Shown piece after piece: positions 3,912 through 31,778 of a DNA stretch of 64,000 nt (within the stretch, counting starts at the first letter, position 1; each line of letters starts with the position of its first letter). Made by a program: the position numbers and the translations under genes. Location: assembly GCF_001677475.2 (NCBI RefSeq), contig NZ_CP015229.1, one strand, 5' to 3'. Below the pieces are notes generated by a model. The model was given only the letters and a program-made list of their open reading frames with translations, ran no database searches and was not told the origin of the DNA. The stretch comes from Escherichia coli (GTDB taxonomy: Bacteria > Pseudomonadota > Gammaproteobacteria > Enterobacterales > Enterobacteriaceae).

Positions 3912-5390
3912 ATGGAAACTCAGTGGACAAGGATGACCGCCGATGAAGCGGCAGAAATTATCCAGCATAACGACATGGTGGCATTTAGCGGCTTTACCCC
4001 AGCGGGTTCGCCGAAAGCCTTACCCACCGCGATTGCCCGCAGAGCTAACGAACAGCATGAGGCCAAAAAGCCGTATCAAATTCGCCTGCTGACGGGGGCG
4101 TCAATCAGCGCCGCCGCTGACGATGTACTTTCTGACGCCGATGCTGTTTCCTGGCGTGCGCCATATCAAACATCGTCCGGTTTACGTAAAAAGATCAATC
4201 AGGGCGCGGTGAGTTTCGTTGACCTGCATTTGAGCGAAGTGGCGCAAATGGTCAATTACGGTTTCTTCGGCGACATTGATGTTGCCGTCATTGAAGCATC
4301 GGCACTGGCACCGGATGGTCGAGTCTGGTTAACCAGCGGGATCGGTAATGCGCCTACCTGGCTGCTGCGGGCGAAGAAAGTGATCATTGAACTCAATCAC
4401 TATCACGATCCGCGCGTTGCAGAACTGGCAGATATTGTGATTCCTGGCGCGCCACCGCGGCGCAATAGCGTGTCGATCTTCCATGCAATGGATCGCGTCG
4501 GTACCCGCTATGTGCAAATCGATCCGAAAAAGATTGTCGCCGTCGTGGAAACCAATTTGCCCGACGCCGGTAATATGCTGGATAAGCAAAATCCCATGTG
4601 CCAGCAGATTGCCGATAACGTGGTCACGTTCTTGTTGCAGGAAATGGCGCATGGGCGTATTCCGCCGGAATTTCTGCCGCTGCAAAGTGGCGTGGGCAAT
4701 ATAAATAATGCAGTCATGGCGCGACTAGGGGAAAACCCGGAAATTCCTCCGTTCATGATGTATTCGGAAGTGCTACAGGAATCAGTGGTGCATTTACTGG
4801 AAACGGGCAAAATCAGCGGGGCCAGCGCCTCCAGCCTGACTATCTCGGCCGATTCCCTGCGCAAGATTTACGACAATATGGATTACTTTGCCAGCCGCAT
4901 TGTGTTGCGTCCGCAGGAAATTTCCAATAACCCGGAAATCATCCGTCGTCTGGGCGTCATCGCTCTGAACGTCGGCCTGGAGTTTGATATTTACGGGCAT
5001 GCCAACTCAACACACGTAGCCGGGGTCGATCTGATGAACGGCATCGGCGGCAGCGGTGATTTTGAACGCAACGCGTATCTGTCGATCTTTATGGCCCCGT
5101 CGATTGCTAAAGAAGGCAAGATCTCAACCGTCGTGCCAATGTGCAGCCATGTTGATCACAGCGAACACAGCGTCAAAGTGATCATCACCGAACAAGGGAT
5201 CGCCGATCTGCGCGGTCTTTCCCCGCTTCAACGCGCCCGCACGATCATTGATAATTGTGCACATCCTATGTATCGGGATTATCTGCATCGCTATCTGGAA
5301 AATGCGCCTGGCGGACATATTCACCACGATCTTAGCCACGTCTTCGACTTACACCGTAATTTAATTGCAACCGGCTCGATGCTGGGTTAA
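3912..5390 (+). CDS. scpC: Propionyl-CoA:succinate CoA transferase
   Basis: 492-aa ORF, GGAG RBS upstream, last gene of the scpA operon. Confidence 0.9.
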   Translation: METQWTRMTADEAAEIIQHNDMVAFSGFTPAGSPKALPTAIARRANEQHEAKKPYQIRLLTGASISAAADDVLSDADAVSWRAPYQTSSGLRKKINQGAVSFVDLHLSEVAQMVNYGFFGDIDVAVIEASALAPDGRVWLTSGIGNAPTWLLRAKKVIIELNHYHDPRVAELADIVIPGAPPRRNSVSIFHAMDRVGTRYVQIDPKKIVAVVETNLPDAGNMLDKQNPMCQQIADNVVTFLLQEMAHGRIPPEFLPLQSGVGNINNAVMARLGENPEIPPFMMYSEVLQESVVHLLETGKISGASASSLTISADSLRKIYDNMDYFASRIVLRPQEISNNPEIIRRLGVIALNVGLEFDIYGHANSTHVAGVDLMNGIGGSGDFERNAYLSIFMAPSIAKEGKISTVVPMCSHVDHSEHSVKVIITEQGIADLRGLSPLQRARTIIDNCAHPMYRDYLHRYLENAPGGHIHHDLSHVFDLHRNLIATGSMLG

Positions 5391-6283
5391 TGACTCGTCC
5401 CGTCACGATCTTCAGCAATATGCTGAAGCATCGTGGCGGTATAACGATGATTTCTGATTGAATAAAGATATTCCTGCATATACATCGGCCTGTGCGGTGC
5501 ATCAAAATATTTCAGCGTTGCCGGATTCACCAGTCGCCAGGCAAAATGCGGGATCACCGTCAGAAAATGTCCGCGCTCCACGGCGCTGATTTTGGCCATA
5601 AAACTGTAGGGACGATAAATAATGGTTGGATTGATCCCACAAGGTCGCATATTCGCATCAATCATTGCTTCGAAGTTGGCCCGGTTCTGAAAGCGCATTT
5701 GCAGCCAGGGCAGCTCCTGAAGCAGCTCTTGCTCTTGACGCTCTTCATAACGGCGAGAAACGAGAAAGCCCAATCGCAGCGGCGGTAGTTCACTGATAGT
5801 CAGGTTTTCCAGTTCCTGAACTCGTGAAGATACATGCTGTGGGGAGATAATAAAATCTAACTGACGGTCAAAAAGATTATCGATAACGCCGTTTTCGCTG
5901 AACTCAACTGGCTGGGCGGTCACGCCTTCATACTTATCTCCGAGACTAATCAACTGATCGAAAATAATTGTCGGATAAGTATTATCTATGCCAATCACAA
6001 TTTCTCGTGAACGACGCCCTGAGTTATGGATTTCATTATCAATCGCAGAAAGTCGTTGATAAACCGGGAACAGTTTTTGATACAGTTCCTGTCCGGCTTT
6101 ATTGAGGCTGATATTATTATCTTTGCGGGTAAATAGCGTATAGCCAATTTGTTCTTCCAGCGCGGCAATGCTTTTACCAAATGGCGAAGCCGTCATATGG
6201 ATTTTTTCTGCCGCCCGGGCAATATTATTGGTTTGCGCTAATAAAATGAAATTGCGCATCTTTTTCGAAATAAAAATGTCCAT
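5387..6283 (-). CDS. ygfI: LysR-family transcriptional regulator
   Basis: 298-aa ORF convergent with scpC; N-terminal HTH and LysR-type layout. Confidence 0.8.
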   Translation of the reverse strand: MDIFISKKMRNFILLAQTNNIARAAEKIHMTASPFGKSIAALEEQIGYTLFTRKDNNISLNKAGQELYQKLFPVYQRLSAIDNEIHNSGRRSREIVIGIDNTYPTIIFDQLISLGDKYEGVTAQPVEFSENGVIDNLFDRQLDFIISPQHVSSRVQELENLTISELPPLRLGFLVSRRYEERQEQELLQELPWLQMRFQNRANFEAMIDANMRPCGINPTIIYRPYSFMAKISAVERGHFLTVIPHFAWRLVNPATLKYFDAPHRPMYMQEYLYSIRNHRYTATMLQHIAEDRDGTSH

Positions 6284-6450
6284 ACCCCCTCCCCCGCATC
6301 CTTGTCCGCTTAACCGTTTCAGTCAGCCTATCCTTGATGAAACCGCGAGCAAAGATAGGTGATTACGTCATGGTTTTACAGAAAATTACAGAAAAAGGAG
6401 GCAATATCGGGTAAAGGCATTAGCCCGACGAATACGTCGGGCTACAAATA

Positions 6451-7191
6451 TTATTGTGCTGCAGGTGTTTTAGCGGGTTGTTGATCCACAGGTTCTAACT
6501 GGAAGACCACATCGACCTGATCATCAAACTGAATAGCGGCCTGCTCGTAAGTTTCCTGGGCGGACACCGGCGCGGCATCGGCTTTCATCATCCGCACCAT
6601 TGGGCTGGGCTGATAGTTGGAAACATGGTAGCGCACGCTATATACCGGCCCCAGTTTACGATGAAAGCCGTTCGCCAGTTCCTGCGCCTGATGAATCGCG
6701 TTATCAATCGCTGCCTTACGCGCTTTGTCTTTATAGGCATCCGGCTGCGCCACGCCCAGCGACACAGAACGAATTTCGTTAAGACCCGCCTTCAGCGCGC
6801 CATCCAGCAAGGAATTCAGTTTGTCTAACTGACGGAGCGTGACTTCCACCGTTCTCACAGCACGGTAGCCTTTCAGGATACTTTTACCATCCTGATAATC
6901 ATAATCTGGCTGGGTGCGTAAGTTCGCTGAGCTGATATCTTTTTTCGCGATCTGATTGAGTTCAAGGAAGGAAATGTATTGTGCGACGCGCTCATCCGCC
7001 TGTTTCTTGGCAGTAGCGGCATCCTTCGCGGCCACGTTGACTTCAATCGCAAGAGTGGCAATGTCTGGCACCGCATCCACGCTTGCCGTACCGGAGGTGA
7101 CAATATGCGGTCCATCCGGCAATTCGTTAGCCTGCGCTGCCATCCCGCTAATACCCATTAATGCCGCCAGGGCGATAACTTTGAACTTCAC
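6451..7191 (-). CDS. yggE: Periplasmic DUF541-family protein YggE
   Basis: 246-aa ORF with N-terminal signal peptide (MKFKVIALAALMGISGMAAQA). Confidence 0.8.
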   Translation of the reverse strand: MKFKVIALAALMGISGMAAQANELPDGPHIVTSGTASVDAVPDIATLAIEVNVAAKDAATAKKQADERVAQYISFLELNQIAKKDISSANLRTQPDYDYQDGKSILKGYRAVRTVEVTLRQLDKLNSLLDGALKAGLNEIRSVSLGVAQPDAYKDKARKAAIDNAIHQAQELANGFHRKLGPVYSVRYHVSNYQPSPMVRMMKADAAPVSAQETYEQAAIQFDDQVDVVFQLEPVDQQPAKTPAAQ

Positions 7192-7283: not shown

Positions 7284-7919
7284 CTAACTGAACAAGGCTT
7301 GTGCATGAGCAATACCGTCTCTCGCCAGCTGCAAAGCAATAAACCACATAACACATCCCACTACCAGATTGATAATGCGCTGTGATTTTGCCGTGCGCAG
7401 GCGCGGTGCCAGCCAGGCTGCGAGAATAGCCAGACCAAAGAACCACAGGAAAGAGGCGCTAATTGTCCCGAGCGCAAACCAACGTTTTGGTTCCACATCA
7501 AGTTGCCCGCCAAGGCTGCCCAGCACAACAAAAGTATCCAGGTAAACATGCGGGTTCAGCCAGGTCACTGCCAACATGGTGGCGATAATTTTCCATCTGC
7601 CTTGCTTCAGGACTTCGGCACTGGCTAACTCAATGTTACTGCTCATTGCTGTTTTAAAAGCGCCAAAACCATACCACAGCAAGAAGGCTACGCCGCCCCA
7701 GGTGACCAGCGCCAGCAACCACGGCGACTGCATCAATAACGCGCTGCCACCAAAAATCCCCGCGCAAATCAGGACCAAATCGCTGATAGCACAAAGTAAG
7801 GCAATCATAATGTGGTACTGACGACGAATGCCCTGATTCATCACAAAAGCATTTTGTGGACCGAGCGGTAGGATCATAGCTGCGCCAAGCACAAGACCTT
7901 GAAAGTAATAAGAAAACAC
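7284..7919 (-). CDS. argO: Arginine exporter, LysE family
   Basis: 211-aa polytopic membrane ORF at the conserved position between yggE and mscS. Confidence 0.85.
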
Positions 7920-8008
7920 GTTGTATATTCCGAATTAAGTATCTGATGCAGAGACTATATCGCGGGATTGTTATTAGCGGAAATTGATAATATTAATTGG
8001 CAATCAGA

Positions 8009-8049
8009 AAAACTAATAAGAGAGAGGCCAGAGAGTATTATCTGGCCTC
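8009..8049 (-). terminator. Putative rho-independent terminator downstream of mscS
   Basis: 9-bp perfect stem gaggccaga/tctggcctc (8024-8032 / 8041-8049) followed by a T-rich run on the minus strand. Confidence 0.45.
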
Positions 8050-8057
8050 AGCGTTGA

Positions 8058-8918
<861 letters not shown>

Positions 8919-9099
8919 TCAATATTCCTTTTCAACTGACTCAAAATGGAGAAATACACTCCGCCGCCTTATGACGGGCAGTCTGACAAGGGTAAACAAT
9001 AAAGCATAATTTTGCCAAATAGATCACAGATTTCTCATCTGTATCACCTTGCTTTTGGCGAAAAATCCCCGCAGAGCGGGGCTCAGACAGATATCAATG

Positions 9100-9215
9100 T
9101 GCGCTTTGTCATGCCGGATGCGGCGTGAACGCCTTATCCGGCCTACAAAAACCTGCAAATTCAATATATTGCAGGATACGTGTAGGCCTGATAAGCGTAG
9201 CGCATCAGGCAACTT
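9100..9215. repeat. REP/BIME-type palindromic units in the mscS-fbaA intergenic region
   Basis: gccggatgcggcgtgaacgccttatccggcctac and gtaggcctgataagcgtagcgcatcaggca, the typical enterobacterial REP motif in inverted orientation. Confidence 0.65.
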
Positions 9216-9224
9216 TTCTTTTGG

Positions 9225-9256
9225 CGAAAAAAAGACCCGCAGAGCGGGCCTTGAGA
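9225..9256 (-). terminator. Rho-independent terminator of fbaA
   Basis: Minus strand reads ggcccgctctgcgggtc hairpin followed by TTTTTTT immediately after the fbaA stop. Confidence 0.6.
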
Positions 9257-9274
9257 TAAGCAGAAAGGAATATC

Positions 9275-10354
9275 TTACAGAACGTCGATCGCGTTCAGTT
9301 CCTGGAATGCTTTTTCCAGACGAGCGATCATCGAAGTCTGACCGGCACGCAGCCATACACGCGGATCGTAGTATTTCTTGTTCGGCTGATCTTCGCCTTT
9401 CGGGTTACCCAGCTGACCCTGCAGATAAGCTTCGTTTGCTTTGTAGTAGTTCAGAACGCCTTCCCAGGTTGCCCATTGGGTATCGGTATCGATGTTCATT
9501 TTAACTACGCCGTAGCTTACGGAGTCTTTGATTTCCTGAGCAGTAGAACCGGAACCACCGTGGAATACGAAGTTCAGGCTGTTGTGCGGCAGGTTGTGTT
9601 TCTTAGAAACATATTCCTGAGAATCACGCAGGATGGTCGGAGTCAGAACCACGTTACCCGGCTTGTAAACACCGTGTACGTTACCGAAGGACGCTGCGAT
9701 GGTGAAACGCGGGCTGATTTTGCTCAGCTCGGTATACGCATAATCAACGTCTTCCGGCTGGGTGTACAGTGCAGAAGCGTCCATGTGGCTGTTGTCCACG
9801 CCGTCTTCTTCACCACCGGTGCAACCCAGTTCGATTTCCAGAGTCATGCCGATTTTGGACATGCGCTCCAGGTATTTAGAGCAGATTTCGATGTTCTCTT
9901 GCAGAGATTCTTCAGACAGGTCGATCATGTGAGAAGAGAACAGCGGCTTGCCGGTAGCTGCGAAGTGTTTTTCACCCGCGTCCAGCAGACCGTCGATCCA
10001 CGGCAGCAGTTTCTTCGCGCAGTGGTCGGTGTGCAGGATAACCGGAACACCATAATGTTCAGCCATCTGGTGAACGTGATGCGCACCAGAGATCGCGCCC
10101 AGGATAGCAGCACCCTGCGGAACATCAGATTTCACGCCTTTACCAGCGATAAAGGAAGCACCACCGTTGGAGAACTGAACGATAACCGGCGCTTTAACTT
10201 TAGCAGCGGTTTCCAGTACGGCGTTGATGGAGTCAGTACCGACGCAGTTTACTGCTGGCAGTGCGAAGTTGTTTTCTTTTGCTACCTGGAAAACTTTCTG
10301 TACGTCATCACCAGTGATTACGCCAGGTTTTACGAAATCAAAAATCTTAGACAT
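9275..10354 (-). CDS. fbaA: Fructose-bisphosphate aldolase class II
   Basis: Protein starts MSKIFDFVKPGVITGDD (359 aa); the 28-codon upstream extension in the ORF track was not used. Confidence 0.95.
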   Translation of the reverse strand: MSKIFDFVKPGVITGDDVQKVFQVAKENNFALPAVNCVGTDSINAVLETAAKVKAPVIVQFSNGGASFIAGKGVKSDVPQGAAILGAISGAHHVHQMAEHYGVPVILHTDHCAKKLLPWIDGLLDAGEKHFAATGKPLFSSHMIDLSEESLQENIEICSKYLERMSKIGMTLEIELGCTGGEEDGVDNSHMDASALYTQPEDVDYAYTELSKISPRFTIAASFGNVHGVYKPGNVVLTPTILRDSQEYVSKKHNLPHNSLNFVFHGGSGSTAQEIKDSVSYGVVKMNIDTDTQWATWEGVLNYYKANEAYLQGQLGNPKGEDQPNKKYYDPRVWLRAGQTSMIARLEKAFQELNAIDVL

Positions 10355-10568
10355 GTCTCTTGTCCTGTATCGTCGGGCCTTATACTCGTCATACTTCAAG
10401 TTGCATGTGATGCGTCTGCGTTCGCTCACCCCAGTCACTTACTTATGTAAGCTCCTGGGGATTCACTCTCTTGTCGCCTTCCTGCAACTCGAATTATTTA
10501 GAGTATGAAAAAGTGCGTGCTTTAAAAGCGCGCTGCAACAAGGGCAGGTTTCCCTGCCCTGTGATTTT

Positions 10569-11732
10569 TTACTTCTTAGCGCGCTCTTCGAGCATCGCTA
10601 CTGCAGGCAGTACTTTACCTTCCACGAATTCGAGGAATGCGCCGCCGCCAGTGGAGATGTAGGAGATTTTGTCAGCAATGCCGAACAGGTCGATTGCTGC
10701 CAGAGTGTCGCCGCCGCCAGCGATGGAGAACGCTTCGCTGTCTGCGATAGCGTTAGCCACGATTTCAGTACCTTTGCGGAAGTTCGGGAATTCGAACACG
10801 CCAACCGGACCGTTCCACAGAATGGTTTTCGCATTCTTCAGGATTTCAGCCAGTTCCTGAGCGGAAGCATCACCGATATCCAGGATCTGCTCGTCAGCTT
10901 TCACATCGTTAACAGATTTCAGGGTAGCCGGTGCAGTTTCAGAGAACTCGGTTGCTACGCGAACATCAGACGGAACCGGGATGTTGCAGGTGGTCAGCAG
11001 ACGTTTAGCTTCGTCAACCAGGTCAGCTTCGTAAAGGGATTTACCCACATCGTGGCCTTGTGCCGCGATAAAGGTGTTAGCGATACCACCACCAACAATC
11101 AGCTGGTCAGCGATTTTAGACAAGGAGTCCAGAACGGTCAGTTTGGTAGATACTTTAGAACCACCAACGATAGCCACCATCGGGCGAGCAGGTTCTTTCA
11201 GTGCTTTACCCAGCGCGTCCAGTTCAGCTGCCAGCAGCGGGCCTGCGCACGCAACGTCAGCGAATTTACCGATACCGTGAGTAGAAGCCTGCGCGCGGTG
11301 AGCAGTACCGAATGCGTCCATTACGAACACGTCACACAGTGCAGCGTATTTTTTGGACAGGGTTTCGTCGTCTTTCTTCTCGCCTTTGTTGAAGCGAACG
11401 TTTTCCAGAACAACCAGTTCACCTTCAGCAACGTCAACGCCGTCGAGGTAATCTTTAACCAGACGAACCGGGTTAGACAGTTTGTCTTTCAGGTAGTTAA
11501 CAACCGGCAGCAGAGAGAATTCTTCGTTGTACTCGCCTTCGGTAGGACGACCCAGGTGGGAAGTTACCATCACTTTTGCGCCTTGTTTCAGGGCCAGTTC
11601 GATGGTCGGCAGAGAAGCACGGATACGCGCATCGCTGGTTACTTTCCCGTCTTTTACTGGTACGTTCAGATCCGCACGGATAAATACACGTTTCCCAGCA
11701 AGATCCAGATCGGTCATCTTAATTACAGACAT
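10569..11732 (-). CDS. pgk: Phosphoglycerate kinase
   Basis: Protein starts [25 protein letters not shown] (387 aa); the upstream extension was not used. Confidence 0.95.
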
Positions 11733-11781
11733 GGTGAATCCTCTCGTTGATTCTAAAAGTTTTGCAGACGCTGCTTGCGTC

Positions 11782-12801
11782 TTACCTGAAAGCAACAGTA
11801 GCCATAGCTAACGTCGTGTCGAGCATTCGGTTAGCAAAGCCCCATTCGTTATCGCACCAGACCAACGTTTTGATCAGGTGTGCACCACTGACCCGGGTTT
11901 GGGTGCCATCGACAATGGCACTGTGCGGATCGTGGTTAAAATCTACAGAGACCAACGGCAATTCCGTATAGTCAACTATACCATGAAATGCACCTTGTGC
12001 TGCTTTTTGCAGCAACAGGTTGACTTCATTGGCTTTTACAGGTTTCTTCACCGTCACGCTTAAATCGATTGCCGTCACATTTATGGTTGGCACACGTACC
12101 GCAATCGCCTCAAAGCGATCGTTAAATTGCGGAAAAAATCGTGTGATACCGGCGGCCAGTTTAGTATCGACCGGAATGATCGACTGGCTGGCTGCCCGGG
12201 TGCGACGCAGGTCAGGATGGTATGCATCAATAACCTGTTGATCGTGCATGGCGGAGTGAATTGTGGTCACAGTGCCGGACTCAATACCGTACGCATCATC
12301 TAACAATTTGATGACGGGAATTATGCAATTCGTGGTACAGGAAGCGTTAGAAACGATGCGGTGTTCCGCACGAAGTTGATCCTGATTGACGCCGTAAACA
12401 ACGGTCGCGTCGAGATCGTTACTGCCAGGATGTGAAAAGAGCACTTTTTTAGCCCCGGCGGCAATGTGCGCTTCGCCATGCTCGCGGGAGCCATATACGC
12501 CGGTGCAGTCGAGGACTACATCAACGCCAAGTTCACGCCAGGGGAGCGATTGCAGTGAACGTTCATGCAATACGCGGATGGCGTCATCACCAACAAAAAG
12601 TTGATCGCGTTCCTGTCGTACTTCCCATGCAAAACGGCCATGGCTGGTGTCATATTTCAACAAATGCGCCATGCCCGCAGCATCCGCCAGTTCGTTGATT
12701 GCCACCACGGTAATTTCCGCCCGACGTCCGGATTCATACAAAGCACGAACCACATTACGCCCGATGCGACCGAAGCCATTTATCGCTACGCGTACGGTCA
12801 T
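11782..12801 (-). CDS. epd: Erythrose-4-phosphate dehydrogenase
   Basis: Protein starts [17 protein letters not shown] (339 aa), GAPDH fold; upstream extension not used. Confidence 0.9.
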
Positions 12802-21575: not shown

Positions 21576-21951
21576 AAATTATCCTTATTTTATTTTTAGG
21601 GTACCGTCCGGCGGTAAAAATAAAATACTCGTGCGGTTTAATGAAAGCAATTGGGTACGCGAGAAGAAAAACCCCATGAACAAAAATAATAAAACTTTAA
21701 ATAACAACAACATGAAATTGATATTTTTAAAGTCAACTTTGTATTTGTTATGTTTATCACAAAATCAACATTTTGATTGTTGTTGTATTTGTGATGCATA
21801 TCGCCATTTATTTATTGAATGTCCGAAAACATACTTTTTTAATGCAATGTTTTTTCGCTATACCCCTTTATAGATTCTGAATTCTCACCTGTCGGCTATT
21901 TTCTCCTCACCTCATGTGACATATTCCCCACTTTACTCAAGGAAGATTCAT

Positions 21952-22860
21952 ATGAAAGCACCTGTTTCATTAACCTCATTTCGCCCACAAAAATCTATTG
22001 CTATCGCCATTGGCGTGCTTGCCGTGGTTGTGCTGCCATTTCTCTCGTATTACACCGTTAATGAAGGTGAACGCGGCATTTTGCTGCGCTACGGAAAAAT
22101 CGTAAAAGTTGCCGAGCCGGGTCTGGGTTTTAAGATCCCTTTTATGGAAAGCGTGGAGAAAATTTCCACGCGTAATCAGGCTGTGGTTTATCAGGGATTA
22201 CAGGCCTACAGCCGCGACCAGCAACCGGCACAAATGACAGTATCAGTCAGCTTCCACATTAAACCTTCAGAAGCTGGCGCAGTTTATACAACCTACAACA
22301 CCATTGAATCTTTAAAAGAGCGTCTGATCGTCCGCCAGCTGCCAACCCAACTGGAGAACGTTTTCGGGCAATATACAGCCATCAGCGCGGTACAGGATCG
22401 TACAAAACTGGTTCAGGATCTGCAAAATGCCATGCGTAAAGCCGTTGTTGGCCCGGTGGTGATTGATGGTGTTCAGATTGAAAATATTGATTTTTCTGAC
22501 GCTTATGAAAAATCGATTGAAGATCGAATGAAAGCAGAAGTCGCCATTGCCACACGTAAGCAAAATCTGGAAACAGAGAAAATCCAGGCGCAAATAGCGG
22601 TAACTCAGGCCCAGGCAGAGGCAGACAGTAAACTGGCGGCAGCCAAAGCAGAAGCGGAAACTATTCGCGTAAGAGGCGCGGCAGAGGCTTAAACTATTCG
22701 TTTAAAAAGTGCGGCTGAAGCAGAAGCGATCCGCCTGCGCGGTGAAGCTCTGCGGGATAATCCCGGACTTGTTGCCCTCACCACTGCTGAGCGTTGGGAC
22801 GGTAAGCTACCCGATACCATGATCCCCGGCAGTACAGTTCCGTTTATCTCTACTAAGTAA
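21952..22860 (+). pseudogene. SPFH/band-7 (HflC/prohibitin-like) gene interrupted by an in-frame TAA at 22690-22692
   Basis: ATG at 21952 after AAGGA; N-terminal TM anchor and SPFH-like core; reading frame continues unchanged for 55 more codons after the TAA; near-duplicate codon block on either side of the stop. Confidence 0.5.
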
Positions 22861-22905: not shown

Positions 22906-24897
22906 TTACAGCAGCGCTTTGGCTTTCGCAACAACGTTGTCAACGGTGAAGCCGAACTCTTCAAACAGCAGTTCTGCCGGAGCAGATTCACCGAAGGTGG
23001 TCATGCCGACGATAGCACCGTTCAGGCCAACATACTTGTACCAGTAGTCAGCAATGCCAGCTTCCACCGCAACGCGTGCAGTAACCGCTTTCGGCAGTAC
23101 GGATTCACGGTAAGCCGCATCCTGCTTGTCGAATGCGTCGGTAGACGGCATGGAAACCACGCGCGCTTTCACGCCTTCGGCAGTCAGTTTTTCGTAGGCA
23201 GCAACCGCCAGTTCAACTTCAGAACCGGTAGCGATGAAGATCAGTTCCGGCTGACCGGCACAGTCTTTCAGCACATAACCACCGCGCGCGATGTTTGCCA
23301 GCTGCTCTTCAGTACGTTCCTGCTGCGCCAGGTTCTGACGGGAGAGGATAAGCGCAGTCGGGCCGTCCTGACGCTCAACGCCGTATTTCCACGCGACCGC
23401 GGATTCAACCTGGTCACACGGACGCCATGTGGACATGTTCGGGGTCACGCGCAGAGAAGCGACCTGCTCTACCGGCTGGTGAGTCGGGCCATCTTCGCCC
23501 AGACCGATGGAGTCGTGGGTGTAAACCATCACCTGACGCTGTTTCATCAGCGCAGCCATACGTACGGCGTTACGTGCGTATTCCACGAACATCAGGAAGG
23601 TGGAGGTGTACGGCAGGAAGCCACCGTGCAGGGAGATACCGTTAGCAATCGCGGTCATACCGAACTCGCGAACACCGTAGTGGATGTAGTTACCCGCAGC
23701 ATCTTCGTTGATTGCTTTAGAACCAGACCACAGGGTCAGGTTAGACGGTGCCAGGTCAGCAGAGCCGCCGAGGAATTCCGGCAACAGCGGACCGAACGCT
23801 TCAATCGCATTCTGAGACGCTTTACGGCTGGCGATTTTCGCCGGATTAGCCTGCAGTTTAGCGATGAATTCTTTCGCTTTGGCGTCGAAGTCAGACGGCA
23901 TTTCGCCTTTCATACGGCGGGTAAATTCAGCGGCTTCCTGCGGATAAGCTTTCGCGTAAGCCGCGAATTTCTCGTTCCATGCGGATTCTTTCGCCTGGCC
24001 TGCTTCTTTCGCATCCCACTGAGCATAGATTTCAGACGGGATTTCGAACGGTGCATATTTCCAGCCCAGCTGTTCGCGGGTCAGGGCGATTTCAGCGTCG
24101 CCCAGCGGCGCACCGTGGGAGTCGTGCGTACCGGCTTTGTTCGGGGAACCGAAACCGATGATGGTTTTGCACATCAGCAGGGACGGTTTGTCAGTCACTG
24201 CGCGCGCTTCTTCTACTGCGCGTTTGATGGATGCCGCGTCATGACCGTCGATGCCGCGAATAACGTGCCAGCCGTAAGCTTCGAAACGCATTGCGGTGTC
24301 GTCGGTGAACCAGCCTTCAACGTGGCCATCGATAGAGATACCGTTGTCATCGTAGAACGCAATCAGTTTACCCAGCTTCAGCGTACCCGCCAGAGAGCAA
24401 ACTTCGTGGGAGATACCTTCCATCATGCAGCCGTCGCCCATGAAGGCGTAGGTGTAGTGGTCGACGATGTCGTGGCCCGGACGGTTAAACTGCGCCGCCA
24501 GCGTTTTTTCTGCAATCGCCATACCGACTGCGTTGGCAATACCCTGACCCAGCGGACCAGTAGTGGTTTCCACACCAGCGGTGTAACCCACTTCCGGGTG
24601 ACCCGGAGTTTTAGAGTGCAGCTGACGGAAGTTTTTCAGTTCTTCCATCGGCAGATCGTAACCGGTGAGGTGCAGCAGGCTGTAGATCAGCATGGAGCCG
24701 TGGCCGTTGGACAGCACGAAGCGGTCACGGTCAGCCCAGGACGGATTCTGCGGGTTGTGTTTCAGGAAATCACGCCACAGGACTTCGGCAATGTCAGCCA
24801 TACCCATAGGGGCACCCGGGTGACCGGATTTGGCTTTCTGTACTGCGTCCATGCTCAGCGCACGAATAGCATTGGCAAGCTCTTTACGTGAGGACAT
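22906..24897 (-). CDS. tktA: Transketolase 1
   Basis: Protein starts [22 protein letters not shown] (663 aa); 10-codon upstream extension not used. Confidence 0.95.
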
Positions 24898-25174
24898 TTT
24901 GACTCCAGATCGGATGATGAAGGGCACGCCCTTAACGACTTGACGACAGCGCGTTTTGGGCTACGCCAGAAAATTTGCCAACAATTTACCGCAAGCCGCG
25001 CGTCATGTACATGGAACATCCTTTTGCCGCTTCAGAAATCTCTGGATCATGCTCGCATGTTGCGCAATCTGCTCGCCCGTCCGCTGCGCTTTTCCTTATA
25101 CTGAGACTGAGCGTCGATTCACCTGCAAACGGCGCATTTTTAGAATAATCCTGACCTTGTGCGGAAGAGAAAAC

Positions 25175-25933
25175 ATGAAAATTCGCGCCTTATTGGTAGC
25201 AATGAGCGTGGCAACGGTACTGACCGGTTGCCAGAATATGGACTCCAACGGACTGCTCTCATCAGGAGCGGAAGCTTTTCAGGCTTACAGTTTGAGTGAT
25301 GCGCAGGTGAAAACCCTGAGCGATCAGGCATGTCAGGAGATGGACAGCAAGGCGACGATTGCGCCAGCCAATAGCGAATACGCTAAACGTCTGACAACTA
25401 TTGCCAATGCGCTAGGCAACAATATCAACGGTCAGCCGGTGAATTACAAAGTGTATATGGCGAAGGATGTGAACGCCTTTGCAATGGCTAACGGCTGTAT
25501 CCGCGTCTATAGCGGGCTGATGGATATGATGACGGATAACGAAGTCGAAGCGGTGATCGGTCACGAGATGGGGCACGTGGCGTTAGGCCATGTGAAAAAA
25601 GGGATGCAGGTGGCGCTTGGTACAAATGCCGTGCGAGTAGCTGCGGCCTCTGCGGGCGGGATTGTCGGCAGTTTATCGCAATCACAACTTGGTGATCTGG
25701 GCGAGAAATTAGTCAATTCGCAATTCTCCCAGCGCCAGGAAGCAGAAGCCGATGATTACTCTTATGATCTTCTGCGCCAACGCGGCATCAGCCCGGCAGG
25801 TCTTGCCACCAGCTTTGAAAAACTGGCGAAACTGGAAGAAGGCCGCCAAAGCTCAATGTTTGACGACCACCCAGCATCCGCCGAACGCGCCCAGCATATT
25901 CGCGATCGTATGAGCGCGGATGGGGTTAAGTGA
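25175..25933 (+). CDS. loiP: M48-family Zn-metalloprotease lipoprotein LoiP
   Basis: ATG at 25175; lipobox VLTGC; HEMGH zinc motif; the 73-codon upstream extension in the ORF track was not used. Confidence 0.85.
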   Translation: MKIRALLVAMSVATVLTGCQNMDSNGLLSSGAEAFQAYSLSDAQVKTLSDQACQEMDSKATIAPANSEYAKRLTTIANALGNNINGQPVNYKVYMAKDVNAFAMANGCIRVYSGLMDMMTDNEVEAVIGHEMGHVALGHVKKGMQVALGTNAVRVAAASAGGIVGSLSQSQLGDLGEKLVNSQFSQRQEAEADDYSYDLLRQRGISPAGLATSFEKLAKLEEGRQSSMFDDHPASAERAQHIRDRMSADGVK

Positions 25934-26018
25934 TTTCATATTTCTCCGACAGGAATGTCGGAGAAATTTTCATTCAGGATCGGTCACAGTCATTAAACAA
26001 GCTCAATCATTGGGGGCA

Positions 26019-27581
26019 TCAATTCGCTTCGTAGATTGCTTTATCCGGTGTATCCGATTGCACCTCTACTACATCGGCAGTGCTTACGCCACAAGCCCAG
26101 GCAAAAGCCGTCTCTGTTCCTTCAGGTAATGGAGTATCCCAGGGTAAAGTACGCCACGGACTCCCCTGCTCTTTTAATAAAGATGTAATGGCTTTCTTAA
26201 AAAGAATATGGGTAATCAGGTGCCGTTTATCCGTTGCTTTCCAGTACCAACGGGCCAGCAAAAAATGTCCGGCCAATTCGCGCCAGCTTCTGTAATGTTG
26301 CTGTACGCGTCTGGCTGCCAGCATCGAAAAATCGACCATTTCACGCTGGGTAATGTATCCCACTTGCGCCCCGCTATTACATAGCATGACAAAGCGCACC
26401 ATATCCCAGGCACAAAAATCTATGTCGCATATTTTACGTCGATTTTTTCTGACCATCTGTAGCTGCCACAAACGCTCTTTCGCTTCGCTACTTAATTTCG
26501 CGTTCTGAGCTAATTGCTGAGCGAACGCGCTATATTCAGCATCCGGCATTTCGCTATCGTTTTTGATCTGTTCTTCATAAACTGAACGATGCCCTGCTAC
26601 AAACAAAGCTAAGAGTTGCTCAAGTAACGAATCCCGATCAAAGACGCCCCACATGTCAGCAAGGGACTCAACTTCACTTTTGCAATCATTCTCTGCTTCC
26701 ACGGAATCATCATTAACGACTCGTCGCGCCCAGTGATTGTTACCCGCAATGGCATAAGGCGCGCCGACTGCCATTGCCCAACGTTCGGCAGCAGGAATTT
26801 TTTGAATTGAGGGATCTTTACAGGATGCTTTGAAAAGGCGATGTCCGGCGAACACCAGGCCATAACCAATCCACAAAACAGCCACCAAGGCGAGAATAAG
26901 TATTATCGCTACCAGATAAAGGGCATATTTGCCTATTGTCAGTAAGACATCCAGCCAGGAAGAGTCTGGCTCCGTAACTGTTTGCTCCACCGATGTCAAA
27001 GGGGACTTACTGACCCGCTCTGGCGCGGTCCTCGTCAACAGAGGGAAATCCCTATGTTGCTTGAATGAGCGTTTTTTAAGCAAATCTATTTTTTTCTGCA
27101 CCTCATCAGTAACCCGACCGTTTTTTTCAAACTCATGTAACGATGCAAAATCAATCGCCGCAATCTTCCATTTACCATCCCCTTCACGGATTAATTCCAT
27201 TGGAATATCAATATAAGATTGGTGACCAAAAAAAGCACCAATCTGCGCCTTGTCGCCTTCGACGAAGGTCGCTAAAGGATCGCTATAACTGGGGAAACGT
27301 CGTTTACACGTTTTGGGTGACTCTTGCCAGTATTTCAGTACAGGCTCCATTAAAGCAGGCGTAAATACTTGCTGCATTTCCACAAGGCGATCGTGCGAAT
27401 CTGTGCTGGTGACAAACTCAGGGCCACATAATGCGCGATAACTCTTTTTGACGACAGAGGAAATAGCTTCTTTGTCTTGTTGCAGCTGTGCGGCAATTTT
27501 CTGTTTTTCTGCTCTATCGCAGCCAGTTGATAAAAGAAATAACAAACAAAGAAGAGGCTTCCAGGGAAGAGTGCGTTCCAT
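26019..27581 (-). CDS. Hypothetical membrane-anchored lipoprotein (520 aa)
   Basis: Signal peptide with lipobox LLSTGC; internal hydrophobic segment LLTIGKYALYLVAIILILALVAVLWIGYGLVFAG; no recognisable catalytic motif. Confidence 0.5.
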   Translation of the reverse strand: MERTLPWKPLLCLLFLLSTGCDRAEKQKIAAQLQQDKEAISSVVKKSYRALCGPEFVTSTDSHDRLVEMQQVFTPALMEPVLKYWQESPKTCKRRFPSYSDPLATFVEGDKAQIGAFFGHQSYIDIPMELIREGDGKWKIAAIDFASLHEFEKNGRVTDEVQKKIDLLKKRSFKQHRDFPLLTRTAPERVSKSPLTSVEQTVTEPDSSWLDVLLTIGKYALYLVAIILILALVAVLWIGYGLVFAGHRLFKASCKDPSIQKIPAAERWAMAVGAPYAIAGNNHWARRVVNDDSVEAENDCKSEVESLADMWGVFDRDSLLEQLLALFVAGHRSVYEEQIKNDSEMPDAEYSAFAQQLAQNAKLSSEAKERLWQLQMVRKNRRKICDIDFCAWDMVRFVMLCNSGAQVGYITQREMVDFSMLAARRVQQHYRSWRELAGHFLLARWYWKATDKRHLITHILFKKAITSLLKEQGSPWRTLPWDTPLPEGTETAFAWACGVSTADVVEVQSDTPDKAIYEAN

Positions 27582-27730
27582 CTATTTATTCCATTAAAAA
27601 CACGGTAATAACAATCCATTAAAAAACAGCAGTCAGGGTAAAGATGACTTAATTAACAGGATAGGTTTTAAATGATAAGTCCCTTGTGCCAGACAAGGGA
27701 CTGTGCAAAAAATTCGACCAGGCAGGTTAC

Positions 27731-28651
27731 TTACTCGCCCTTTTTCGCCGCCTGAATATACAGCATCTCCAGCGCCAGCGTTGCCGCTGCCAGAGCAGTG
27801 ATTTCCGACTGATCGTATGCCGGAGCCACTTCCACTACGTCCATCCCAACGATGTTGAGATCTTTCAGGCCGCGTACCAGTTTAATGGCGCGATCGGAGG
27901 TCAGGCCGCCAATTACCGGCGTACCGGTGCCTGGTGCAAAAGCAGGATCCAGGCAGTCGATATCAAAGGTCAGGTAAACCGGCATATCACCCACAATCTG
28001 TTTCACCTGGGCGATAACATCATCCACGCTGCGATCGTTCACCTGGCAGGCGTCCAGCACGGTAAAGCCGTTGTCTTTATCAAACTCGGTACGAATACCA
28101 ATCTGCACGGAATGATTCGGGTCAATCAGACCTTCTTTTGGCGCGGTATAGAACATCGTGCCGTGGTCAAATTCACAACCGTTCGCATAGGTATCGGTGT
28201 GAGCGTCAAAGTGTACCAGCGCCATTTTGCCGAAATGTTTTGCATGGGCGCGCAGCAGCGGCAGCGTAACAAAGTGGTCACCACCGAAGGAGAGCATACG
28301 CTTACCGGCAGCCAGCAGTTTCTCTGCGTGCGCCTGCAATTTCTCGCTCATCTCACGGGCATCGCCGAAGGCATATACCAGATCGCCGCAGTCCACGACG
28401 TTCAGGCGCTCGCGCATGTCGAAATTCCACGGGAAACGGTTGTGTTCCCAGGCCAGGTTAGTTGATACCTGACGGATAGCCGCCGGACCGTGACGACCAC
28501 CCGCACGACCAGAAGTGGCCATATCGAACGGTACGCCGGTAATCACCCAGTCAGCATCGCTGTCATACGGCTGGAAGTTCATCGGCAGGCGTAAAAAACC
28601 AAAGGCGTTGGAAACCAGTGAGTTATCGTATTGATGCCCTAAGGTGCTCAT
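27731..28651 (-). CDS. speB: Agmatinase
   Basis: 306-aa ORF, arginase-fold Mn-binding motifs (GGDHF, DAHTD). Confidence 0.9.
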
Positions 28652-28786: not shown

Positions 28787-29518
28787 CTATTTCCGACACG
28801 GTGGCGGCGCATAGCCATTGTTATCTGCTGGAAAAGCTTGTCCAGAGCACGGTGGCAGCGCGTTTTGCGCCGGGCCTTGTAATTCAAAGGCGGCAAAGCC
28901 GATTACCCCGGTATTACGCACATCGCCTTGCGCCGAATTGGCGGCGTAGGAATCAGCAACGTTGGCGAACTGAAAAGCCGCTTCGGTATGTTTATCTTTG
29001 CGGAATCCTTTAATCGCTAACGAATCTCCGGCATTCACAATATAACCGTTGTTATTCAGCGAACCTTGCTTGCCGTTCAGCACATCCAGGCCATCAACCG
29101 TAGCAACGATCTCGTAATTGGTGTTCCGGCTGTAGTTACGGACATATAATTGATAATTCATCCCCACTCTGGCATGAACAATATATCGCGGTTCATTATT
29201 TGATGAATCATAAACTCGCGTAATAGGTAGAGAATTAAAATTCGCATCACGAATAGCATATTCCAGTTCGTTAATACGAATGCTATAAACACGGTCGTAG
29301 CCGGAAGGAATATTTGTCGAATAATTAATAACGATCATCTCTGCCGGATCGCGCCAGGCGCGTTCAGCAGATACGCCCTGAACCGTTGAGTGCACATCTC
29401 CACCCCAGGCAGTGCCGACATTGCCCGATGCACTGCTATTATACTGCGCATTACTTGAGCAACCAGCCAACAACACGACTAATGCCACCAACGCGCTACG
29501 TACTTTCCATTTTTTCAT
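28787..29518 (-). CDS. Hypothetical lipoprotein (243 aa)
   Basis: Signal peptide MKKWKVRSALVALVVLLAGCSS with lipobox; Asn/Ser/Tyr-rich mature part. Confidence 0.5.
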   Translation of the reverse strand: MKKWKVRSALVALVVLLAGCSSNAQYNSSASGNVGTAWGGDVHSTVQGVSAERAWRDPAEMIVINYSTNIPSGYDRVYSIRINELEYAIRDANFNSLPITRVYDSSNNEPRYIVHARVGMNYQLYVRNYSRNTNYEIVATVDGLDVLNGKQGSLNNNGYIVNAGDSLAIKGFRKDKHTEAAFQFANVADSYAANSAQGDVRNTGVIGFAAFELQGPAQNALPPCSGQAFPADNNGYAPPPCRK

Positions 29519-29661: not shown

Positions 29662-31638
29662 TTATTCATCTTCAAGATAGGTATATCCGTACAACCCTGC
29701 CTCGAACTCTTCAAGGAACTGTTGTTGCAATTCAGCATCAAGATCGGTTTTCTTCACTTGATCACGGAACTGAGTTAACAGCGTTTTCGGATCGAGCTGT
29801 ACATATTGCAGCATGTCCGCCACGGTATCGCCTTCGTCAGACAGTTCTACTTCTACGCTACCGTCAGGGAAGACGAACACGTCAACCGCTTCGGTATCAC
29901 CGAACAGGTTGTGCATATTGCCGAGGATCTCCTGATATGCGCCGACCATAAAGAAACCGAGCATCGGCGGATTCTCCGGATCGTACTCCGGCATTGGCAT
30001 TGTCGTGGCAATACCGTCACCATCAATATAGTGGTCGATAGCACCGTCAGAGTCACAGGTAATATCCAGCAACACAGCGCGGCGTTCCGGCACTTGATCC
30101 AGCCCTTCCAGCGGCAGAACCGGGAACAACTGGTCGATCCCCCATGCGTCCGGCATCGACTGGAACAGCGAGAAGTTGACGTACATTTTGTCCGCCATAC
30201 GTTCCTGCAGCTCGTCGATAATCGGGCGATGCGCACGGTTTTGCGGATCCAGTTGCTTCTGCACTTCATGGCACATGCTCAGATAGAGTTGTTCTGCCCA
30301 TGCACGTTCTTGCAGATTGTAAGTGCCCGAAGAGTATCCGATATGAATATCGTGCAGATCCATCTGGCTGTCATGCAGCCACTCACGCAGAGAACGGCGA
30401 GTCCCCGGTTCGTGCATTTCCTGCCAGGTTTCCCACATGCTTTGCAGGGCGCGCGGTGCGTCTTCTGCAGGTGCGGTCGGCACCGTGTATTCGTTACGTT
30501 CCACGCCGATGATATTTGACACCAGCACGGTGTGATGCGCAGTCACCGCACGACCCGACTCGGTGATTACCGTCGGATGCGGCAGACCATTTTCTTCACA
30601 CGCATCACCAATCGCCCAGATGATGTTGTTAGCGTATTCATTGAGGCCGTAGTTCACCGAACAGTCGGACTGCGAACGGGTGCCTTCATAATCCACGCCC
30701 AGGCCGCCGCCGACGTCGAAGCACTGAATATTGACGCCCAGCTTGTGCAGTTCCACATAGAAACGCGCGGATTCACGAACGCCTGTCGCGATATCGCGAA
30801 TATTCGCCATCTGCGAACCGAGGTGGAAGTGCAGCAGTTGCAGACTGTCGAGACGCCCGGCTTCACGCAGCGTTTCAACCAGTTGCAGTACCTGAGTCGC
30901 AGCCAGGCCGAACTTCGATTTTTCCCCGCCGGAGGACTGCCATTTACCGGAGCCCTGCGAAGCCAGACGTGCACGCACGCCCAGACGAGGAACGACATTC
31001 AGACGTTCTGCTTCATCCAGCACAATGGCAATTTCTGACATCTTCTCAATGACCAGATAGACCTTGTGGCCCATCTTCTCGCCAATTAATGCCAGGCGGA
31101 TATATTCGCGGTCCTTATAACCGTTGCAAACGATGACGCTACGGGTCATGCCAGCATGTGCCAGCACCGCCATCAACTCCGCTTTGGAACCGGCTTCCAG
31201 GCCCAGCGGTTCGCCCGAATGAATCAGGGACTCAATCACGCGGCGGTGCTGGTTAACTTTGATCGGATAAACGAGGAAGTAATCGCCGTTATAGCCGTAG
31301 GATTCCCGCGCACGTTTGAACGCGGCGTTAATAGAACGCAAACGGTGCTGCAGGATCTGTGGGAAACAGAACAGTGCAGGCAGACGCTGGCCCTGTGCTT
31401 CACGAGTTTTCACTAACTGCGCGAGATCGACGCGAGCTTCCGGGACGTCCGGGTCCGGGCACACGCTAATGTGGCCCAGCTCGTTAACGTCATAGTAGTT
31501 ATTGCCCCACCAGGCAATATTGTAAGTACGCAGCATCTTGCTGGCTTCCTGGGAGCTCATTGCAACCTCCTGCATGGAGCGTAGTACACCGTGTTCGCCC
31601 GCTGACGAAGGCAAACCCATAGACATGTCGTCAGACAT
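29662..31638 (-). CDS. speA: Biosynthetic arginine decarboxylase
   Basis: Protein starts [21 protein letters not shown] (658 aa); 4-codon upstream extension not used. Confidence 0.9.
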
Positions 31639-31646
31639 AGCGAACC

Positions 31647-31778
31647 TCAAATTATTTTATTAAGTGTAAAACAGTTAACGACTATCGCAGCCTGGAACTG
31701 CGATAACAACCCATAAGCACATGGATTTTCCAGCAGTGAATGCTGACGCTCCAACTGCGCAACCGGTTTCTTTTTCAT
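31647..31778 (-). CDS. yqgB: Small protein YqgB (43 aa) immediately upstream of speA
   Basis: Minus-strand translation by eye gives [43 protein letters not shown]; its stop lies 8 bp before the speA start; too short for the ORF track. Confidence 0.7.

Follow-up and report, generated by a model that had tools for sequence, protein, structure and literature searches.

A strain-variable gene between loiP and speB of Escherichia coli encodes a predicted inner-membrane lipoprotein carrying a DUF1266 domain

We analysed a stretch of Escherichia coli DNA of 64,000 nucleotides (contig NZ_CP015229.1 of assembly GCF_001677475.2; hereafter, the window) and found between loiP and speB an open reading frame of 520 codons that is intact and represents a genuine accessory gene of Escherichia as a genus. 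A chance ORF is argued against by its match to the Pfam family DUF1266, by homologues in several enterobacterial genera and by a dN/dS well below 1. The anatomy of the product is well supported as that of a bitopic inner-membrane protein, with a periplasmic NTF2-like domain, probably lipid-anchored, and a cytoplasmic DUF1266 domain. Taken as a whole, the protein is best read as an accessory, bitopic protein of the inner membrane that serves as a tether or relay and displays a DUF1266 protein-interaction module at the membrane's inner face, a reading to which we give about even odds (a probability of roughly 0.5). The gene itself is an ordinary strain-variable one, uncharacterised and already labelled in RefSeq, where the same ORF in carrier genomes is annotated as "DUF1266 domain-containing protein"; the family is likewise known but uncharacterised.

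An extra gene in the loiP-speB interval

The coding sequence of this DUF1266 domain-containing inner-membrane (lipo)protein occupies positions 26019-27581 of the window on the minus strand, stop codon included. It starts with ATG, and the N-terminus of its product reads MERTLPWKPLLCLLFLLSTGCDRAEK in the ORF list. The gene is convergent with loiP (25175-25933, plus strand), upstream of which lies tktA (22906-24927, minus strand); on the other side it neighbours speB (27731-28651, minus strand), with speA (29662-31650, minus strand) beyond.

From the loiP stop to the speB stop we measured 1,797 bp in the window versus 205 bp in K-12 MG1655, in line with the roughly 1.8 and 0.2 kb given in a preliminary description made from the sequence by eye. 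When the K-12 locus was compared with the window by blastn, the tktA-loiP and speB-speA regions aligned at ~96-98% identity, and window positions 25932-27729 and the K-12 spacer stayed unaligned. The K-12 spacer consists of palindromic REP/BIME-type repeats and shows no homology to the window's segment or to its ends. There is no gene in the MG1655 interval, and the preliminary description was thus right to call the gene extra relative to K-12. The additional DNA replaces the REP spacer; it was not simply inserted. We looked for scars of an insertion, namely direct or inverted repeats at the segment ends and homology to the spacers of K-12 or of strain N3, and found none, and the loiP-speB interval contains no Rfam elements.

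The window resembles E. coli, and over the tktA-loiP region no complete E. coli genome exceeds 99.3% identity to it. Its closest relative there is strain N3, whose loiP-speB spacer is 47 bp long, contains one REP-like hairpin and is unrelated to the window's segment. The slot occurs in three states: the 1.8-kb gene-bearing segment (window 25934-27730), the 205-bp REP/BIME array (locus L001, 5673-5877) and the 47-bp single REP (locus L049, 10029-10075). These states are mutually unrelated in sequence, and all switch exactly at both stop codons.

The 149 bp upstream of the DUF1266 gene are 36% GC. The AT-rich upstream region at 27582-27677 (minus strand; about 36% GC) carries a weak GGAA Shine-Dalgarno-like element, and a promoter scan of the upstream region returned no sigma-70 consensus. 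Directly past the speB stop, a terminator-like hairpin with a weak T tract (27678-27702, minus strand) separates speB from the gene. At the other end, a hairpin with a 12-bp stem (25940-25967) lies between the convergent loiP and DUF1266 genes and probably acts as a shared bidirectional terminator.

Other parts of the region also differ from K-12. A second extra gene lies between speB and speA (28787-29518, minus strand). Its product, a predicted lipoprotein of 243 aa that begins MKKWKVRSALVALVVLLAGC, matches no Pfam family; of 5,426 complete E. coli genomes about 3,550 carry the gene, under the labels hypothetical protein, lipoprotein or membrane protein, and no complete genome exceeds 95.6% identity to the allele of the window. 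Between cmtB and tktA, an ORF of the SPFH/Band_7 (prohibitin) family (21916-22692, plus strand) is not in K-12 and is found in strain N3 and in E. albertii. It is 258 aa long here, with a GTG start, versus 302 aa as annotated elsewhere; either the start codon is called wrongly or the gene may be truncated here.

Predicted architecture of the protein

The protein begins with a lipoprotein-type signal peptide (aa 1-20) and a lipobox Cys21 (27519-27581, minus strand), reading MERTLPWKPLLCLLFLLSTG followed by CD. The n-region is MERTLPWKP and the h-region LLCLLFLL, after which come S, T, G, C21 and D22. In an alignment of ten family sequences T19, C21 and D22 are invariant, and more distant members of the family have a canonical L-T-A-C-D. 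The E. coli lipobox, L-S-T-G-C, fits a relaxed PROSITE-type (PS51257-type) pattern, with the Ser at -3 falling outside the strict [LVI]. In E. coli, an Asp that directly follows the lipidated Cys (position +2) keeps a lipoprotein in the inner membrane (the Lol-avoidance rule), and all ten family members have Asp at this position. Lipid anchoring and retention in the inner membrane are accordingly what we would predict from the sequence.

The signal peptide is followed by the ectodomain (aa 22-178; 27048-27518, minus strand), which we modelled as aa 22-216 from a nine-sequence alignment. The model (mean pLDDT 81, core above 90) runs from helices through a four-stranded sheet and two further helices to a disordered linker (about aa 185-207), and shows the alpha+beta cone fold of the NTF2-like (cystatin-like) superfamily. 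No Pfam family, NTF2-type families included, matched the ectodomain, and its sequence identity to the NTF2-like comparators, namely 2rfr, the RsgI9 anti-sigma sensor domain 7sjy, VirB8/CagV, Tai3 and the Ttg2D/MlaC-like 8dte, is only 7-21%. Two cysteines, C52 and C92, are nearly invariant across the family and fit a candidate periplasmic disulfide. No sigma factor, secretion-system or Mla genes were found near the window's gene. An RsgI-like membrane anti-sigma factor was considered and set aside: the cytoplasmic domain is DUF1266 and not an anti-sigma domain, and the neighbourhood has no sigma-factor gene.

A hydropathy scan (Kyte-Doolittle) revealed a single strongly hydrophobic internal segment spanning roughly aa 209-250 and centred on a core of about aa 216-246 (26844-26936, minus strand), where 19-residue window means reach up to 3.07. 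The putative transmembrane (TM) helix is flanked by acidic residues on its N side (EPDSSWLD) and by basic residues on its C side (HRLFKASCK), a positive-inside pattern; the NTF2-like domain would face the periplasm and the DUF1266 domain the cytoplasm. Overall, the protein's anatomy agreed well with the preliminary description, which had proposed a lipobox signal peptide, a periplasmic N-domain and one internal TM helix. Indeed, Cys21 and Asp22 are invariant throughout the family, the N-domain has a predicted NTF2-like fold and a pair of almost invariant cysteines, which is what a periplasmic location would lead one to expect, and the helix is single, with basic residues C-terminal to it. The further suggestion that such a topology points to signalling or anchoring is plausible and is our best guess.

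The DUF1266 domain and its relatives

The cytoplasmic part of the protein is an all-alpha domain (aa 247-512; 26046-26843, minus strand). A domain search, proposed in the preliminary description, assigned it to a recognised Pfam family, PF06889 (DUF1266), with a score of 103.9 bits, where the gathering threshold is 27, and an E of 1.5e-29, over profile positions 1-175 of 175 and a core of aa 306-481. The AF2 model, built from a 112-sequence alignment, is all-alpha with pLDDT 94 and pTM 0.91. This model has no fold neighbours in the PDB or among viral predicted structures, PDB sequence searches with the protein and with the family profile returned nothing except a spurious C-type lectin match (E 0.015), and NCBIfam gave no informative match. 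Across the 112 homologues D393 and R396 are invariant, and W311, G330, H331, R332, W392, G404, G408, E414, W433, R444 and W447 are kept in at least 90%, yielding the family signature GHR, WDxxR, GY..E, SW, RxxW. The domain had been described as large, rich in Trp and Arg, and devoid of a recognisable catalytic motif. The enrichment holds for Trp (4.0% of the C-terminal part) and is only marginal for Arg (6.9%); as described, we recognised no catalytic motif of a known kind. The domain also lacks structural relatives, and it has a conserved polar signature of its own (GHR, WDxxR, E).

By sequence comparison, the domain is a distant paralogue of K-12 YbeR and YbeU, which share PF06889. Identity is 21-24% (BLASTP E 1e-8 for YbeR and 7e-10 for YbeU), and both proteins retain the GH, WDxxR, E, SW and RxxW positions of the signature. 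YbeR and YbeU are soluble proteins of 235 aa without signal peptides, whereas the window's protein has 520 aa, is membrane-embedded, carries a lipoprotein NTF2-like ectodomain and is encoded by a solitary gene elsewhere on the chromosome. In the K-12 cluster (locus L006, 3712-8664), the DUF1266 genes of the pairs ybeR-djlB and ybeU-djlC overlap the following J-protein gene by 4 nt, and a Sel1 / DUF1266 / J-domain module (Sel1 genes ybeQ and ybeT) is duplicated beside the Hsp70 gene hscC. Sensitivity to Cd2+ is a known hscC/djlBC phenotype. DjlB and DjlC belong to the tail-anchored J-proteins of the plasma membrane, and HscC has been proposed to act on the cytosolic domains of membrane proteins (PMC8215388). 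In contrast, the window's gene lacks this coupling to a J-domain co-chaperone gene: it neighbours loiP and speB, and no J-domain, Hsp70 or Sel1 gene stands beside any orthologue or TM+DUF1266 relative examined. At loci L007 and L008, the genes that overlap the DUF1266 stop are cut by contig ends, and no J-domain was found in these partial ORFs.

An exhaustive HMMER search with the DUF1266 part returned 1,230 cluster representatives; among the 150 matches listed, the ectodomain was covered only by the closest relatives. The NTF2-like lipoprotein ectodomain was found only in a small enterobacterial clade comprising Escherichia, Klebsiella spallanzanii, Hafnia and further relatives. The closest proteins outside Enterobacterales (for example, P0017-P0047) come from Actinomycetota, where they are concentrated, and other bacteria, and are 30-38% identical over aa 255-490. 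In most of them, one TM helix at the N-terminus leads through a basic stretch into DUF1266; they share these elements and a solitary gene with the window's protein but have almost no extracytoplasmic part. A few DUF1266 relatives (P0029 and P0053) carry apparent Sec signal peptides, and the domain may not always be cytoplasmic across relatives.

ORF clustering at 36 TM+DUF1266 loci brought up only housekeeping neighbours (topA, an aminotransferase, ABC-F ATPases, hydrolases), which reflect synteny and not partnership. A pertactin-type autotransporter gene lies directly upstream of the TM+DUF1266 gene, on the same strand, in two genomes that are not related, Leminorella grimontii (L003, 5069-7804; L010, 2703-5438) and the 7-Mb genome CP195076 (L009, 3222-5921). 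We rejected it as a partner because the autotransporters are only generically related (26% identity, in the beta-domain) and other contexts are without them; the adjacency may be coincidence. In L009, a run of three genes beside the DUF1266 gene (7555-12631, minus strand) encodes a tyrosine recombinase of 410 aa, a protein of 589 aa that weakly matches an integrase and one of 692 aa with no Pfam match, and looks like a mobile element of the recombinase-trio type. In other proteins, the fusion partners of DUF1266 are long TPR arrays, Sel1 repeats, DUF4240, a beta-helix or further DUF1266 copies, and in one case the gene of a soluble DUF1266 protein adjoins a 953-aa TPR gene.

The conserved residues also bear on the main rival to the tether or relay reading, in which DUF1266 is an enzyme: a membrane-bound catalyst at the cytoplasmic face, acting for example on a lipid-linked or envelope precursor, with the NTF2-like ectodomain handling the periplasmic substrate or product. 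The near-invariant positions of the 112 diverse homologues are polar or aromatic (G-H-R, W-D-x-x-R, E, R-x-x-W), are retained in YbeU and YbeR, and sit at helix ends in the confident AF2 model; such a His/Asp/Arg/Glu constellation fits an enzyme as well as it fits a binding site, and NTF2-like folds include many enzymes and small-molecule binders. However, the domain shows no sequence or fold similarity to any enzyme, and its fusions are to repeat scaffolds (TPR, Sel1) and not to enzymatic or transport domains. We consider an enzyme unlikely; the remaining alternatives, a remnant, a conflict system and a link to polyamines, are weaker still.

Distribution and selection

Presence/absence mapping, also suggested in the preliminary description, placed the segment in 210 of 5,426 complete E. 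coli genomes (~4%), always as a single chromosomal copy between loiP and speB; no plasmid copies were found. O103:H2 strain 12009 is one of the carriers. The gene is dispensable; about 96% of complete E. coli genomes lack it. The K-12-type REP spacer was present at >=80% coverage in 3,748 genomes. Carriers fall into about three allele groups, with roughly 98.8%, 97.9% and 97.0% identity to the window: the gene is intact in the 97.9% group and split into ORFs of 89 aa and 393 aa in the 97.0% group. The same slot is occupied in E. albertii (L046), in which many entries are truncated or fragmented, and in a divergent Escherichia lineage (L047) that encodes an 87%-identical protein. Beyond the genus, orthologues of the same architecture occur in Klebsiella spallanzanii (51% identity), Hafnia alvei/paralvei (39%) and further relatives, and the Leminorella grimontii version is without the ectodomain. 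These orthologues reside in unrelated contexts (marC-MFS, adh-selA, a PTS operon). The loiP-speB spacer, as a multi-state slot, could serve as a lineage marker.

Divergence around the slot is uneven. The window's speB is unusually distant from that of K-12 and TUM18781 (dS about 0.20, 95.6-95.9% nucleotide identity), whereas loiP is 97.9-98.5% identical to the same genomes (dS 0.06-0.09), a contrast that suggests a recombination mosaic around variable slots. Between E. coli and E. albertii (L046, CP043262, gene at 5001-6563), the DUF1266 gene has a dS of 0.18, lower than speB (0.33) and loiP (0.47), which hints that it was exchanged between the two species after their split.

To quantify selection, we compared the window, TUM18781, E. 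albertii and the 87% variant, all four with 520 codons. The dN/dS was 0.24-0.35 for the whole gene, 0.15-0.24 for the DUF1266 domain, 0.23-0.54 for the ectodomain and 0.34-0.64 for the TM helix, versus 0-0.06 for the flanking speB and loiP, placing the DUF1266 gene 5-50 times above its flanks. Its GC content is 46.4% and its GC3 44%, compared with a GC3 of 57-63% in the flanks. The gene is under purifying selection, yet it has been lost or split in some lineages, and the split in one allele group together with the fragmentation in many E. albertii indicates that selection for it is weak. Together, the selection and composition data point to a gene that is functional, weakly constrained, compositionally foreign and frequently lost.

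Several of these properties would also suit a dispensable remnant, an old horizontal acquisition that is drifting to loss and does little or nothing in this strain today. The gene's absence from about 96% of complete genomes, the unrelated REP spacers (205 bp or 47 bp) of other strains, the 89-aa and 393-aa ORFs and the E. albertii truncations, the low GC3, the missing sigma-70 consensus and the raised dN/dS are all compatible with decay. Yet the full 520 codons persist in all four genomes compared despite a dS of about 0.18-0.23, dN/dS is clearly below 1, especially in DUF1266, and the lipobox Cys, the Asp at +2, the Cys pair and the DUF1266 motif are strictly conserved out to Hafnia, at 39% identity. 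Decay is a rather improbable account of the gene.

The patchy distribution, low GC and polymorphic intergenic slot could also indicate that a variable site in the chromosome harbours a component of a conflict system, for instance a protein of anti-phage defence or immunity, and in some DUF1266 proteins the domain is joined to TPR arrays of great length, with a weak TPR-S (sensor) match. However, we found no PADLOC (PADLOC-DB) match at E<=1, no meaningful PHROG match, no plasmid copy and no viral fold match; the gene stands single, without effector-like neighbours or mobility genes, and in other genera it lies among housekeeping genes. We regard such a role as very unlikely. A link to polyamine metabolism, through the position directly downstream of speB in the orientation shared with speA and speB and behind only a weak terminator-like hairpin, is more doubtful than any of the above, given the unrelated contexts of the orthologues in Klebsiella spallanzanii, Hafnia, Leminorella and related bacteria and the fact that most E. 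coli run speAB without the DUF1266 gene.

Discussion

Our preferred reading is that the protein acts as a transmembrane tether or one-component relay. The pocket of the NTF2-like domain would bind a periplasmic ligand or partner, and the DUF1266 module at the inner face of the membrane would bind a cytoplasmic protein partner. Candidates for the latter are TPR/Sel1-type scaffolds or the tail-anchored J-domain co-chaperones DjlB and DjlC of the Hsp70 HscC, which we put forward because partners of these kinds are seen with other DUF1266 proteins. The partner's identity is a guess, since no partner gene is conserved beside this gene or its TM+DUF1266 relatives.

A bolder proposal, which we regard as a long shot, gives DUF1266 a so far unrecognised role in the HscC-DjlB/DjlC system, as the module that selects clients or regulates. 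The 520-aa protein would then be its transmembrane version, in which the NTF2-like lipoprotein domain couples a periplasmic signal to the membrane-associated chaperone machine. If true, this would constitute a one-component relay from the envelope to a chaperone, based on a fold without a solved relative. In the literature searched, no publication discusses a role of DUF1266 in the HscC/J-protein system; the sole mention of "DUF1266" was in a transcriptome table for strain 042, where the locus-tag number suggests a different locus, and "PF06889" and "DUF4240" returned nothing.

The combination of an NTF2-like lipoprotein domain, a TM helix and DUF1266 is a variant confined to one clade, and the searchable literature contains no description of it. 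Its architecture and predicted topology place the orphan-fold DUF1266 domain on the cytoplasmic side of the inner membrane. The confidently modelled domain (pLDDT 94), with no PDB neighbour and a His/Asp/Arg/Glu signature, together with the recurrent pairing of the family with TPR/Sel1 proteins and the membrane-anchored J-proteins of HscC, offers a way of probing, by experiment, an Hsp70 system that is poorly understood.
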